DNA of 40,166 nt from a virus (lineage: Duplodnaviria; Heunggongvirae; Uroviricota; Caudoviricetes): the IMG/VR virus record IMGVR_UViG_2671180740_000012. One strand, given 5' to 3'. Position numbers: made by a program. Below are positions 27,001-33,000 of the stretch, piece after piece (positions within the stretch are counted from its first letter, which is position 1; each line of letters opens with the position of its first letter).

Positions 27001-30000
27001 CGCCGGATTTCCCCATCAGGTAATGCCCGGATAAGACCAGGGTCAATAACAACCGGTTTCTTTGCCTTTGCTCTCGAGAGTTTTTTGCGGGCATTTTGCC
27101 AGTCCTTACGCGCCTGATCAGACGGGAATAAACCATAACCTGAGTCGAATATAGCGCCACTGACAACCAGTTCTCTGGACAAACGTCTGACAGCTGTCTT
27201 GCTGACTCCGGTTTCAGTAGCCAGTTGCCTGAACGTTCCCCGACCATTCAGGCGCACGAGCTCCACAATACGTGCCTTCAGTTCTTCCCGCTGTTCGGGT
27301 GTAAATACTTTTGCCATAAGCTCTCCAGTTATCACTTTTCCGATGCAATACTGCTGGATGAATCGGTAATCTGCATGACAAGTTCCCGGTGTTTATTCAG
27401 CTCACGTAGTGCAGCACAGACACGCTCCCACTTCTGGACCTGTTTTTTGGCGCGACGAAGTTCACGACTGGCGGCCCGTAGAGGTGGAAGGGTCACTGCA
27501 CCAGCATATTTTTCGGTGAACGACGGAACATCCCGGATAAACTCATCTGTACAGGCCTTTGCCGTGCCCTCTGACATCAACGGAAAGCGATTCAGTTCGT
27601 CGCCTGACGCGCTGTTTTCTGCTTCGTGTGTGATATTCTCATCCTGCGATGATGACGCGCTCAAATCGCCGTTTTCGACGTCAGGCACTTTATAACGGAA
27701 TTTTCCCTTGATAGACACGCGCACCAGGCGCCCCGTTGCTGTTACTACCGCCAAAGTGGAAGCAACCTTACGAGTGGTAACTCCGAACTTACCCGCTATT
27801 TCTTCACAGGTTTTAGCCCCCTCCTGAGCGATAAACTCAATCATCATGTCAGCGCTAACTTTTGGAGCGACCTCTTCGGTTACCACATCCGGCGCTTCAG
27901 ATTGTAGTGCCTGCCCTTCGGTTACCCCGGATTCACCTTCGACAGCCAGAAACCAGGTGTGACCCGTTTTATCAACAACACCATTTTTTTTGAGTTCCCA
28001 CAGTTCGTTGAGAACTTCTTCACGGCTGATATCAAGCCGCGCCGCCAGTTCAACAGAATTGGCTTTACCCATCGCTTTCAGTGCATGCAATACGGTTTCC
28101 ATCGAAAATTTACCTCGTCAAAAATTCTCACATACCCTGACGCCCAACGTTTGATCGCCAGCTCTCCCAGTTAAAATTCACCCAACGACCACCGTTCATG
28201 GTCATACGGTCCATCACCCGCTCGCCGAGGAGTGTGCTCATCGCTGCGTGATTCAGGTTCGTCAGCATCCCGACACTGCGCAGTGATGCCGTTCTGCGGT
28301 CGACGATCTGGTTCAGTATGACCTGCTCGTTGCGCGTATCCCGCTGCATGCCAATTTCATCCAGGACCAGAAGGTCAACTCCACAAAGCTCCTGTAAAAA
28401 TTTCTCACCAGACTTGCCGTTGTCATAGCCGTCATGCAACACACTCATGACATCGGACACGGTGACGATAATCACGCTTCTCCCCTTCGCCATCAGCCAG
28501 TTGCCAATCGCTGCTGCAAGGTGATTTTTCCCGGTGCCAGGTTTACCGCTGAACACGAAATTCGTGCAGCCGGTATGCAGTTCTGCCGCGATGGATTTTG
28601 CCTGACTCAGAGCATGGCGCTGACCGTCGTTCTGCACCCGGTAGTTCCCGAATGAGCACTTCCTGTGAAGCGGCTGGATGCCCGAACGATTCAGGATTTT
28701 TTCAACCCGCGTCTGGTGATTCTGGCGGTTAACTTCCTCGCTGCGCTTCCGGCCCTCAGCCAGTTGCCATTCCCGCCATTCGTCGGTCGTCCGGAACGGT
28801 GCTGCCACGTGCGGTGGTGCCAGACGGCGCACCCGTTCAAGAATCCCTCCTGTCGAAATGTTTTTCATGGCTGATTACCCCCTGAAACCCGGCGGAATTT
28901 CGGTGTCCGGTTCAGAAATGTGATTCACGCAACGCAGGCTGACTGCGCCAGCCTTCGGCAGCGCCCACGGATTTTCGAAATTCCTGTTCGGGCCAAAAAA
29001 CGTCGATGCCTGCTGAACAAATTCAGTTCCCACTTTCCCGGTAGCCTCCAGGTATCTTGCGTAACGCCTCACACCATCCAGCACGACATCCGGTGACACC
29101 CCTTCGCGTAATCTGGCCCTCCAGGCATTGAACGCGGATTTCTTCGGGTTTGACCCTGCCCGATGCGGATATTCACGCCAGACCCGTTCGAACACGTCAG
29201 GATAATCAACTCGTCCCGCAGACGGTCCCGGCATCGCCCGGGTTAACCCAATCGGCTTCCCGCTCATCGCGGAATCGGCTTCAGGCTGCTGCGGTTGGTG
29301 TTGTTGCTCCGGTTCGACGAGCAGCACCTGCTGCACACAACGCCCGGAATCTGCTTCCGGTGTCATGCCAGCTGGTCCTGGACGTTCAGTCAGAACGGGA
29401 CAAGAATCCACCAGTGGGTCCGTGGCGATTTTTTCGCCATGGACCAGAAGGGTTTTATCTCTTTCCTGTTCCTGTTCCTGTTCTTGGCTTGAAAGGGGCT
29501 CTGAAGGGGCTTCAATTTTCCGACATGATTCACGTCTGACATCCAGGTGGAAATCATCCTTATATCTATCATAAAATGATGATAAAAAAGGATTTTCCAG
29601 CAACGCGGAATATTCATTTCTTACCCCAGCACAACGGTTATCGCCTGGTTTCAGCGCTTCACCAACCTGCCATGCTGCCATTTCATGCACCCATACAACC
29701 TCAGAATCATGGTCATAGCTGCAAAAACCAGCCTCGCAAGCCATTTGAAGCCCCTTAGAAGCCCCTTCAGGATCAAGTCCGGTTTCGTGAGCAATGTACA
29801 AAACAGGCAGGTAATAAAGGCCCAGCATATTGGAATGAGGCGAGGTCATCATATACAACGCCACTACCATACATTCCGGACCAGACTTCCTTAGTTTTCG
29901 CCCTGTATCGCCTAACCAGAACTGAGGTGAAATTGTTGCGTAATTACGCATAGTCCCCTCGCATACAAGATTTACTCCATACCGCAGACGGTCCCGGTAT

Positions 30001-33000
30001 CTCCCGGGTTAACCCAATCGGCTTCAGGCTGCTGCGGTTGGTGTGACTGCACATTGGTGTGACTGCACATCTTCACAGACGGTCCCGGTATCTCCGGGTT
30101 AACCCAATCGGCTTCAGGCTGCTGCGGTTGGTGTTGTTGCTGGCGAAATTCTTCCAGATGTGGCAGAATTATTCCCGTGTATTGCTCCATGCCCTGCCTG
30201 AATATCAAATATTCATCAGGATTTGCTCAGAACGTCCGGCCCCAACCGGACGTTTTTTATTTGCATGAACGTTAATGGCATGGTTGAACGCCCGGCTGAT
30301 CGGACTGATATCAGATGCCATCTGGAACGCACATAAAATCGCCGCAATGTATCGCCAGTCGGTACGACTGACCTTCGATTCATGGCAGCCAATCATCTTC
30401 GCCAGTCCCCTTTGCGTCAGAGCTGACAGGTTGATAAGTAAATCCGTTTCAGCGCGATCGATATCGCGCTGCGACAGTTTGCTGTAACTTGTTTGTGACA
30501 TTTCTTATGATTCCAAATAGTGAATAGTTAGTTGAAAGGTATGCGTGGAAACGCATATGGCCTTAGTTGGTCAGATATCTTGGGGCTCGCTTTTCAGCGA
30601 CGTAGGACGAATGTCCATTGTGAAAAGAGCAGTGTTAATTGAGCTTATCGTTGACGATCAGGATTCGCTACATTGCGTAACCATTCGGCGGTAAATTTGC
30701 CATCAGATGCATTGGCGAGAATTTCCGAATAGTTGGTTTTCATCGTGTATTCGGTGCGAGGTAACGCTCCGTTTTTAACCCACTTATGAATTGCAACATT
30801 TGACAACCCGCATAAACGGGCAGCGACTGTTTGACCACCAACAGCTTTTACTGCGAATTGTATCGGATTCATACTGCTATCCATTAATTTAGTTAACTTC
30901 GAGTTAATGTTAACTATTAGCTGACAGTTATGTCAACTATGTTTGATAATTAACGTATGGTTAAAAAAGATGAACTAAAAGAAGCGTTCTCAAAGAGACT
31001 ACTACAGGCATTATTAGATGCAGGTGTGGGCGGACGCGGTCAGGCTAAGCGGATTCAGAATGCAATGAAACTGCGAGGCATTGATATCTCTGAACCGGGG
31101 ATCTGGAAATGGCTTAATTCTGCATCAATTCCAGAAAAAACAAGTATTTTGGCACTTAGTGACTGGCTTTCCGTGAAGCCGGAGTGGTTGGAGTATGGCA
31201 GTAACGAGCCATCCGTAAAACAGCGACCTTCTATTCCAAACGAATCAGAATGGGGTTCCCTTGAAACTTGGGACAGAAATACACCACTACGAGATGATGA
31301 AGTTGAGGTGCCATATCTGAAAGACATTGAGTTTGCATGCGGTGACGGAAGAGTTCATTGCGAAGATCATAATGGTTTTAAATTACGCTTCTCAAAAGCA
31401 ACCTTGCGCCGTGTCGGAGCTAACAGTGATGGTTCTGGTGTGCTTTGTTTTCCGGCTACTGGTGATAGCATGGAACCCGTGATACCAGATGGAACAACAA
31501 TCGCAGTAGACACAAACAACAAACGTATTGTTGACGGCAAACTCTACGCCATCGCACAGCCTGGTGTCGGTGATGAAAAACTGAAGCGTATAAAGCTATT
31601 GTACAGACGCCCCGGTGGAAAACTAATCATACGCAGTTATAACAGTGAAGAGTACCCTGACGAAGAAGCAGATACTCAAAGCGTGGAGATTATCGGAAAA
31701 GTTTTCTGGTATTCAGTTCTGCTTTAGCCCTCTCCCCCGGCCTCAGAGCCGGGTTTTTTATTAACCCAGCTAGCCAAAACTCATCTATCCTAGCTTCTAT
31801 ACCCCTTCATACTTGATAACCGTCGCTCACCGAACAAGCAATAATAATTAACTAAAAATCAAAAACATAGAATGCTTCCACAATAATTTTAACTTTGAGT
31901 TATTGACTAACACTAACCAACGGTTAATAATCATTTTACCAACAGGTCACCGATAACAACGCGGTCCCAATTGGAAAGCTCTTTAAACAACGTCGAACAC
32001 TCGACTACGTGGCTGCAAAGCCAGATCGCCCAACCGCATAAGCTGTCGGGTGCAATGCCGAAGCAATCATCTCAGGGGAGGCTTCGAGATTGCATCGCCA
32101 AAGTTTATTCGGGAGAAATCTATGTCCAGAAAAACAGAATTTAAAGGCACCGCAGCTTCCCGCCGCAGAGCACACCGGGCTGAGCTTCAGAGTCTGGAGG
32201 CATCAAGCGCTGATAAACTGCACCGCCCCACACCTTCACGGGTGTACTTACAGTGCAAACGCAAAGCCGCAATGCGAGCTGAAGTAGTCACGATAACGAC
32301 ATTAACCAGAAAATATGAAGGCTCTACTTGTCTTCCAAACACTGCACTTTACGCAGCTGGCTATCGCAAATCCGGAACAATAACAGCGAGGTGATTGATG
32401 ACCACGCCTTCAGTTTTGCCGCAAAAATTATGGCGTCCGCTTGCAGAGATTAAAAACTTCGTTGAAAAAATGCCTGACGGCGTTCGCCTTACGGAAGTTA
32501 CTAAAAAAGTTAAGACATTTGCCGAACTGTCAGGAAAGGAGAGAAACCAGCTCATAGATTTTATCGATAAACGGGAAAGCATCATTGTATTTAAGGTCAG
32601 AAAAGAAGGTTCTGGTAACGGAGTAACCTTTTTCCGCCACAAAAAATATGGATATCCCAAGCGGGAAGGAAACGTCACAATCATTAAGGACCTTCAATCA
32701 AAATTATGTACCAGATGCGGGCAGACAAAATCAGTCGATGATTTTTATTCAGATGCCAGCAAACGTGACGGGAGAGCCATTTATTGCAAGAAGTGCGAAT
32801 CTGCAATGAAACGCTCACGCAGAGAATGCAACAAATTAATTCTGCAACAACAGGAACCTGAAATGAATAACCTAAAAGCAGTTTCACCTTCACCAGAAAT
32901 ACTCAGAAAGCAGGCGGAAGAATTGCTGAAAGCCGCCGAAATTGCGGAGAAAAAACGCCAGGAAGATGATGTATTCAACAAAAAACTTGCGCCCTTAAAA

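Follow-up and report, generated by a model that had tools for sequence, protein, structure and literature searches.

Repeats at the replication initiator gene of an Eru4-type Stx phage are probably an unstable duplicate of initiator linker DNA, not origin iterons

Do the near-identical direct repeats in and beside the replication initiator gene of Shigella Stx1 phage POCJ13 mark its origin of replication, or are they the trace of a duplication? The window, i.e., the whole stretch of 40,166 nucleotides analyzed here (IMG/VR record IMGVR_UViG_2671180740_000012), corresponds to this phage and carries the "Eru4" replication region. The original prediction, made from the sequence alone, offered both answers: that the repeats are origin iterons, which in lambdoid phages lie within the initiator gene, or that they record a recent slipped duplication of the gene's 5′ region. 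Comparison with relatives leads us to regard them as a likely ectopic, tandemly amplified duplicate of ~95 nt of initiator linker DNA, unstable and probably functionless, and our verdict is of a recombination and slippage scar at the junction of the cII and replication modules. The repeat features, in window positions, are as follows.

29216 to 29308, minus strand: internal (source) repeat copy, in DNA coding for the interdomain linker, with a 23-nt segment included
29982 to 30044, minus strand: proximal upstream copy, ending 30 nt ahead of the initiator start codon
30038 to 30070: 16-nt tandem (TTGGTGTGACTGCACA, 2.1 copies; Tandem Repeats Finder) that forms the spacer between the two upstream copies
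30076 to 30141, minus strand: distal upstream copy, abutting the po-like promoter region, with a 1-nt deletion relative to the proximal copy

Repeat finding and pairwise local alignment confirmed the three predicted copies, one internal and two upstream. The internal copy (29216 to 29301) matches the proximal copy at 61 of 63 positions with one 23-nt gap, and over 29219 to 29308 it matches the distal copy at 64 of 66 positions with 23-nt and 1-nt gaps, while the two upstream copies are identical to each other (59/59) except for a 1-nt gap; apart from these indels, the copies are thus 97 to 100% identical. Homology between the distal and internal copies runs 9 nt further (GTTGTTGCT) than first described. 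Since ten shuffles of the window gave longest exact repeats of only 13 to 15 nt, chance is excluded as the source of the three-copy repeat. A local tandem duplication of 14 to 16 nt had also been predicted, and it was recovered with a period of 16 nt and 100% matches. The repeat unit spans 60 to 66 nt, or ~90 nt when the 23-nt segment or the spacer is counted (the internal copy being ~90 nt), and the three copies are spaced 766 and 91 nt from start to start. G+C content is 0.55 to 0.67 across and beside all three. The unit holds a perfect palindrome of 10 bp, GGGTTAACCC, together with an inverted repeat, CCCGG-N6-CCGGG.

The unit is coding DNA from the middle of the initiator gene (codons ~215 to 246 of 358), not from its 5′ region. 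In gene orientation, the internal copy encodes EQQHQPQQPEADSAMSGKPIGLTRAMPGPSAG followed by RVDYPDVF, within the flexible region between the N-terminal and C-terminal domains. Phage Evi has the same linker and C-terminal domain, with 81% DNA identity between the stop codon and position 29356, and its initiator has a wholly different N-terminal half with different internal short repeats. The linker unit is also found (35- and 33-nt matches at 94%) in the replisome-organizer gene of an E. coli prophage (L010), where it accompanies an unrelated N-terminal domain and Evi-type short repeats. The linker and C-terminal domain form a module of their own. A 23-bp partial duplication had been noted inside the internal copy; the segment is indeed present, but as the ancestral state rather than as an added duplication. 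It occurs in every internal copy examined, as 23 nt in the window and in one E. coli relative (L009, strain 23CRST049) and as 24 nt in Evi and in an outgroup whose N-terminal domain is 78% identical. The window's upstream copies lack it, and it is kept in the upstream copies of L009 and in the open reading frame variants P0009 and P0010. Because all internal copies examined carry the segment, we take it to be ancestral and the window's upstream copies to be derived; because it persists in some upstream copies, these would duplicate the internal linker and not the reverse.

The internal linker of the window also differs in reading frame from its relatives. Comparison of 29216 to 29290 with L052 (2190 to 2280) and L006 revealed a −1/+1 compensating frameshift pair ~40 nt apart, which, relative to the linkers of Evi and the 78% group, alters the peptide from one containing SAIQREADRVVPE, then G, then VGR, to one containing SAMSGKPIGLTRAMPGPSAGR. 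Since the pair changes the linker peptide, this region of the initiator seems to tolerate arbitrary sequence.

How widely are the upstream copies distributed? A 1,751-nt test segment (28800 to 30550) matches Shigella phage POCJ13 at 100% identity and Shigella phage 75/02 Stx (NC_029120) at 98.9%; it also matches prophages in ~75 complete E. coli genomes at 97.7 to 99.5% identity, including one of O104:H4 strains. We considered whether the latter could be the outbreak Stx2 phage and dropped the idea, as the literature places the outbreak phage in Eru1; the match is described here only as "a prophage." Only 6 phage records and 82 E. coli genomes contained the upstream region. The N-terminal domain allele (≥95% identity) was present in 78 genomes and at least 80% of the upstream region in 78, the overlap of these two sets not having been cross-checked genome by genome. 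Among close relatives in IMG/VR, 27 have two upstream copies and 4 have one, while ~30 IMG/VR loci of the outgroup, with the 78% identical N-terminal domain and the same linker and C-terminal domain, have the internal unit and no upstream copy. An upstream copy was sought in Klebsiella, Acinetobacter, Ralstonia, and other Escherichia phages with this N-terminal domain, and none was found, unrelated small genes being present there instead. Similarly, the upstream region has no homology to the equivalent region of relatives with the same N-terminal domain, its sole matches being the linkers of Evi and L010. On these sequences, the upstream copies appear to be confined to one young E. coli/Shigella clade (≥97% identical). 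Since so narrow a distribution would be unexpected for an element that this initiator family needs for origin function, it does not support a reading of the repeats as origin iterons.

Within the clade the upstream array is unstable. Comparing copy number among related prophages, a check that the original prediction had called for, revealed one, two, or three upstream copies, and none in outgroups. Two copies is the majority state; one copy is found in L007, at least 6 more genomes, and the 4 IMG/VR loci; and three are found in L011 and, as 114-nt units, in L009. Copy number changes in whole steps of 90 nt (or 114 nt) among near-identical genomes, and the 16-nt spacer unit is present at 1, 2, or 5 copies, as deduced from open reading frame products of 76, 72, and 88 amino acids (variants P0002 and P0004 among them). 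The only other length variation in the 1.75-kb region among five aligned relatives lies in a (TTCCTG)n array. In one recombinant (L008), a crossover of an upstream copy with the internal copy has removed the N-terminal domain entirely, and annotation gives the gene as frameshifted or partial; this form comes from three isolates, all sampled at the same wastewater site, and the deletion is probably a single event. In L009, the upstream copies have both the 23-nt segment of internal type and a single-nucleotide polymorphism, which indicates conversion. The locus therefore combines near-identical copies, whole-unit polymorphism, recombination between copies, and a state that is derived relative to an outgroup with the internal linker, the pattern of slippage and unequal crossing-over in variable-number tandem repeats (VNTRs). 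Acting as a substrate for homologous recombination appears, from these derivatives, to be the only demonstrated "activity" of the repeats. The earlier suggestion of a duplication scar is thus borne out in that the repeats are polymorphic, tandemly amplified, and have mediated a deletion, but not in its source, which is the mid-gene linker and not the 5′ region.

Given the homology relationships, phylogenetic restriction, copy-number variants, and deletion derivative that we observed, we infer an order of events, a mechanism for the initial ectopic duplication, and a lack of function. In the ancestor of the young Eru4-type clade, one linker copy would have been placed ectopically between the cII/oop module and the initiator ribosome-binding site, in a short gap that forms the mosaic junction of the immunity and replication modules. 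It is possible that this copy arrived by duplication of the N-terminal domain plus linker followed by deletion, or through an illegitimate joint during module exchange. The upstream copy would then have been tandemly amplified by slippage or unequal crossing-over, with the 16-nt slipped spacer, and would have lost its 23-nt segment via deletion between two AAGCCGATT direct repeats. Later copy-number change and gene conversion may have continued to reshape the upstream array, and an occasional crossover between upstream and internal copies would delete the N-terminal domain and the probable origin, leaving a defective prophage.

Several points weigh against this account. The initial ectopic duplication step is not reconstructible from the available sequences, and no experiment on this replication module was found in the searched literature. 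The 10-bp palindrome and the CCCGG-N6-CCGGG inverted repeat could be putative protein-binding sites. At least one upstream copy remains in every sampled clade member whose initiator is intact, and the upstream tract shows a single variable site in 170 nt among 17 two-copy haplotypes, compared to 15 of 450 nt in the N-terminal domain, 7 of 150 at its third codon positions, and 7 of 98 in the internal copy (Fisher p = 0.08 versus the N-terminal domain and 0.03 versus third codon positions). It is conceivable that selection has kept the upstream copies, either as accessory binding sites that tune a nearby origin (via GGGTTAACCC or CCCGG-N6-CCGGG) or as handles for recombination of a cassette, in which case selection, rather than recent ancestry, would account for the low substitution density and for the presence of copies in all intact members of the clade. 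We consider this quite unlikely. Shared ancestry in a clade at least 97% identical suffices to explain why one copy or more is always retained. The low substitution density is suggestive, a possible hint of constraint that is not robust; we do not read it as demonstrated constraint because the variable sites are phylogenetically clustered (~10 independent events), the low-diversity tract reaches past the repeats on both sides, and L009 shows the upstream tract diverging freely.

The deletion derivative bears on a specific form of such selection, in which the direct repeats would be "handles" around a cassette of N-terminal domain plus origin, promoting its exchange or excision between phages that share the linker. 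The repeats do flank exactly the N-terminal domain and the candidate origin described below, the linker is the homology boundary with Evi-type initiators, and an excised form exists (L008). However, that excised form is a frameshifted pseudogene from one clonal set, neither a reciprocal product nor another cassette flanked by such repeats was found, and the arrangement is restricted to one young clade, so that selected handles seem to us very unlikely.

Could the repeats nevertheless be origin iterons, or accessory initiator-binding sites that nucleate an origin complex or regulate it by titration or handcuffing? Like the iterons of lambda, they are situated at or in the initiator gene; the palindrome and short inverted repeat offer plausible binding sites; and the scarcity of substitutions in the upstream tract and constant presence of an upstream copy in the clade would fit such a role. 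On the other hand, 60- to 90-nt units at 766- and 91-nt spacing and a G+C content of 0.55 to 0.67 are unlike iterons, and the AT-rich stretch is 250 to 370 nt from the repeats. The sequence follows the linker and C-terminal module, not the DNA-binding N-terminal domain; no upstream copy exists in the 78% outgroup or in any distant relative; copy number varies from 1 to 3 among relatives; and the units lack a family-wide motif, GAAGGGGCTTC, even at 1 mismatch. We therefore regard an iteron function for these repeats as decidedly unlikely, and the part of the original prediction that proposed origin iterons fails on the length, irregularity, and G+C richness of the units, their tie to the linker/C-terminal module, and the restriction of upstream copies to one clade. 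A shorter sequence inside the unit, GAAGCCGATT, was tried as a mini-iteron and rejected, with 7 matches in the window versus 3.4 expected; because it is also repeated in the Evi linker despite the different N-terminal domain there, it is not specific to the DNA-binding domain of this initiator.

A better origin candidate than the repeats is more probably formed by the GAAGGGGCTTC clusters inside the initiator gene, whose features are as follows.

29745 to 29770: candidate iteron cluster 1, two units with 11-bp spacing, GAAGGGGCTTCTAAGGGGCTTC in gene orientation
29550 to 29609: AT-rich stretch between the clusters (G+C content, 0.32), a possible DNA unwinding element
29493 to 29515: candidate iteron cluster 2, two units with 11-bp spacing, GAAGCCCCTTCAGAGCCCCTT in gene orientation, inverted relative to cluster 1
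29463 to 29486, minus strand: (TTCCTG)n hexamer array encoding (EQ)n, adjoining cluster 2

The GAAGGGGCTTC motif has palindromic arms (GAAG/CTTC) and an 11-bp spacing and lies within the coding region of the N-terminal domain. The two clusters, 229 nt apart, bracket the only AT-rich stretch of the region. Both are conserved as DNA and keep their positions within the gene across phages of Klebsiella, Acinetobacter, and Ralstonia, other Escherichia phages, and the IMG/VR groups; the loci concerned are L012 to L017 and L049 to L097. The central triplet of cluster 2 alternates between GGG and CCC among relatives, which changes the peptide (EGASKGL versus EAPSEPL/QAPSKPL) and keeps the DNA motif. 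Across 62 invariant amino acid columns with degenerate codons in six divergent initiator genes, an identical codon was used in all six genes at 8 of 12 columns in the cluster and hexamer zones versus 4 of 50 elsewhere (Fisher p = 5.5e-5). This is the pattern expected of cognate iterons, and the GAAGGGGCTTC clusters are probably the true origin iterons of the Eru4-type module. No DnaA box was found between 28800 and 30300 at up to 1 mismatch. The searched literature yielded no description of the GAAGGGGCTTC motif or its orientation flips, no origin described or mapped for the Eru4 replication type, and no mention of the module's repeats; in the paper that defines Eru4, the terms origin, iterons, and repeats each have 0 occurrences (PMC8951638).

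Several other observations concern these intragenic elements. The (TTCCTG)n array varies among five near-identical relatives in 6-nt steps up to 24 nt (~4 to 8 units), and it is kept with the same codons even in the G+C-rich Ralstonia phage NK-7. In Acinetobacter phage YMC/09/02/B1251 (L014), the RefSeq initiator start at 2268 appears to be internal, as homology to the N-terminal domain and an ATG are found from 2001, and immediately upstream of the gene (1955 to 1998) there is a third iteron cluster. Genes with the unrelated Evi-type N-terminal domain (replisome organizers downstream of ydaT-like genes) are built analogously and contain two clusters of four CGTGAC each, at ~10- to 11-nt spacing and 260 nt apart (3145 to 3183 and 3405 to 3443 in L006; 1879 to 1917 and 2139 to 2177 in L010).

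The repeats might alternatively act as single-stranded nucleic acid, either as single-strand initiation or primosome-assembly signals or as an RNA-level regulator of initiator translation. The DnaT-like C-terminal tail of the initiator is compatible with the former, and the single-stranded DNA fold of the proximal copy is slightly better than those of shuffles (z of about −2.3). No structure is common to the three copies, however, the other two having z values of +0.24 to −1.1, and the units are absent in relatives. At the RNA level, a structured element in the leader between cII and the initiator was rejected, its fold being no better than shuffles (z = −0.28), as was a known RNA family: the only Rfam hit was a sub-threshold AgvB match on the oop-like terminator (21.8 bits versus a gathering score of 56). 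We regard a signal of either kind as extremely unlikely.

Another possibility is that the repeats are kept for a protein product, since they generate a small open reading frame (ORF) at the cII/oop junction, where the relevant features are as follows.

29972 to 30190, minus strand: small ORF of 72 amino acids from an ATG at 30190, or 78 amino acids from a TTG at 30208
30141 to 30262, plus strand: antisense unit resembling po/oop, belonging to the cII module and facing the 3′ end of cII, identified by alignment with lambda and P27
30160 to 30168, plus strand: extended −10-like sequence, TGgCAGAAT, of the po-like promoter
30229 to 30262, plus strand: oop-like intrinsic terminator

A 78-amino-acid ORF that repeats HQPQQPEADWVNP exists, as predicted; it is generated by the repeats and is probably spurious, as had been proposed, though it is annotated as a 72-amino-acid hypothetical protein in GenBank/RefSeq. 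As a real gene, it would encode a repeat peptide or a leader translationally coupled to the initiator. In favor of this, all records annotate the ORF, it constitutes a separate PHROG (phrog_2751), a weak Shine-Dalgarno sequence is possible upstream, its stop codon lies 20 nt ahead of the initiator ATG, and the 90-nt unit preserves the frame in the 42-, 72-, and 102-amino-acid forms. Yet the products of variants range from 42 to 102 amino acids, several in a different frame, and both frame and C terminus vary among P0004, P0008 to P0010, and L009. The L009 form of the ORF terminates after the first unit, and its leader has 4 substitutions, every one of them nonsynonymous. A search of 5.8 billion proteins returned 10 clusters composed only of 42- to 102-amino-acid ORFs, every source-named cluster being from E. 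coli, and no homologue outside the E. coli lineage; nor did these results support a remnant N terminus of a longer protein. No domain was found in Pfam or NCBIfam. The 5′ part of the ORF overlaps the po/oop-like antisense unit, which explains conservation there: the DNA of its first ~20 codons can be aligned to the po promoter and the 5′ end of the oop antisense RNA in lambda and P27, so that membership in the cII/oop module explains the leader better than a coding role does. The stem of the oop-like terminator shows compensatory changes relative to lambda/P27. We consider a selected product quite improbable; the ORF was probably created by the repeats and would be a by-product, not a conserved gene. 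The distal repeat copy ends at a position equivalent to the po −35 region. Since homology to the cII of other Stx phages ends at the cII stop codon, the repeats sit exactly at the junction of the immunity and replication modules.

All genes in the examined part of the window are on the minus strand. Those surrounding the repeats are as follows.

30645 to 30884, minus strand: cro-like gene
30205 to 30501, minus strand: cII gene (Pfam Phage_CII), the end of the immunity/cII module
28875 to 29951, minus strand: replication initiator/replisome-organizer gene, 358 amino acids (phrog_1701 and phrog_3729)
28128 to 28868, minus strand: DnaC/IstB-like helicase loader gene, downstream of the initiator

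The initiator consists of an N-terminal domain, an (EQ)n and linker region, and a C-terminal domain with a DnaT-like tail, the resemblance to DnaT lying in the last ~25 to 80 residues. A Pfam search of the protein gave no match, and its PHROG matches are annotated as DnaD-like helicase loader and replication initiation protein. In the POCJ13 RefSeq record (L001, 3076 to 4071), the initiator coding sequence is annotated as 996 nt, with a 5′ end 81 nt short of the 1,077-nt ORF; the latter matches the full-length gene of 75/02 Stx (1,089 nt, with a longer hexamer array) and of other relatives. Shigella phage 75/02 is the type phage of Eru4, a non-lambda replication region of Stx phages, in a classification of replication regions based on gene content only (PMC8951638). 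The window has the same cII-initiator-DnaC-like region, 98.9% identical over the 1,751 nt compared, and is therefore assigned to the Eru4 replication-region type.

In themselves, the repeats are of little importance, being an unstable duplication where two phage modules join. They add to annotation a hypothetical protein that is probably spurious, and through deletion they can inactivate the replication module of a prophage. For Eru4-type Stx phages (POCJ13, 75/02 Stx, and related E. coli prophages), they should not be used to anchor an origin prediction. Instead, comparison yields a testable candidate origin in the initiator gene, the GAAGGGGCTTC clusters around the AT-rich stretch. Members of this phage clade could also be typed by their 90-nt and 16-nt arrays.

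VNTR-like duplications, tandem or dispersed, arise by slippage and unequal crossing-over at the mosaic module junctions of lambdoid phages. The repeats resemble these in their near-identical direct copies, whole-unit copy changes, nested 16-nt repeat, deletion between copies, and junction location, and differ in that their source is an internal piece of the neighboring gene, 766 nt away, rather than adjacent sequence. With lambda-type iterons they share the character of repeated DNA tied to the initiator gene of a phage of lambdoid organization, and the internal copy lies in the part that codes for the interdomain linker, where lambda's iterons also lie. Lambda's iterons are annotated as four 18-nt sites, 20 to 24 nt apart, all inside gene O and beside an AT-rich region, and Stx phages P27 and 933W carry six O-protein binding sites (PMC7466680). 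In contrast, the repeats are G+C rich and 60 to 90 nt long, with one copy inside the gene and two outside at 766- and 91-nt spacing; they form no tight array of at least four short units within the gene and have no adjacent AT-rich region, they do not covary with the DNA-binding N-terminal domain, and their upstream copies are missing in relatives. For the candidate GAAGGGGCTTC origin, the comparators are SPP1 gene 38/oriL and plasmid iteron origins. Like the iteron clusters found in replisome-organizer genes, this candidate has repeats spaced at one helical turn (11 bp), arranged as two clusters around an AT-rich stretch within the initiator's own gene.

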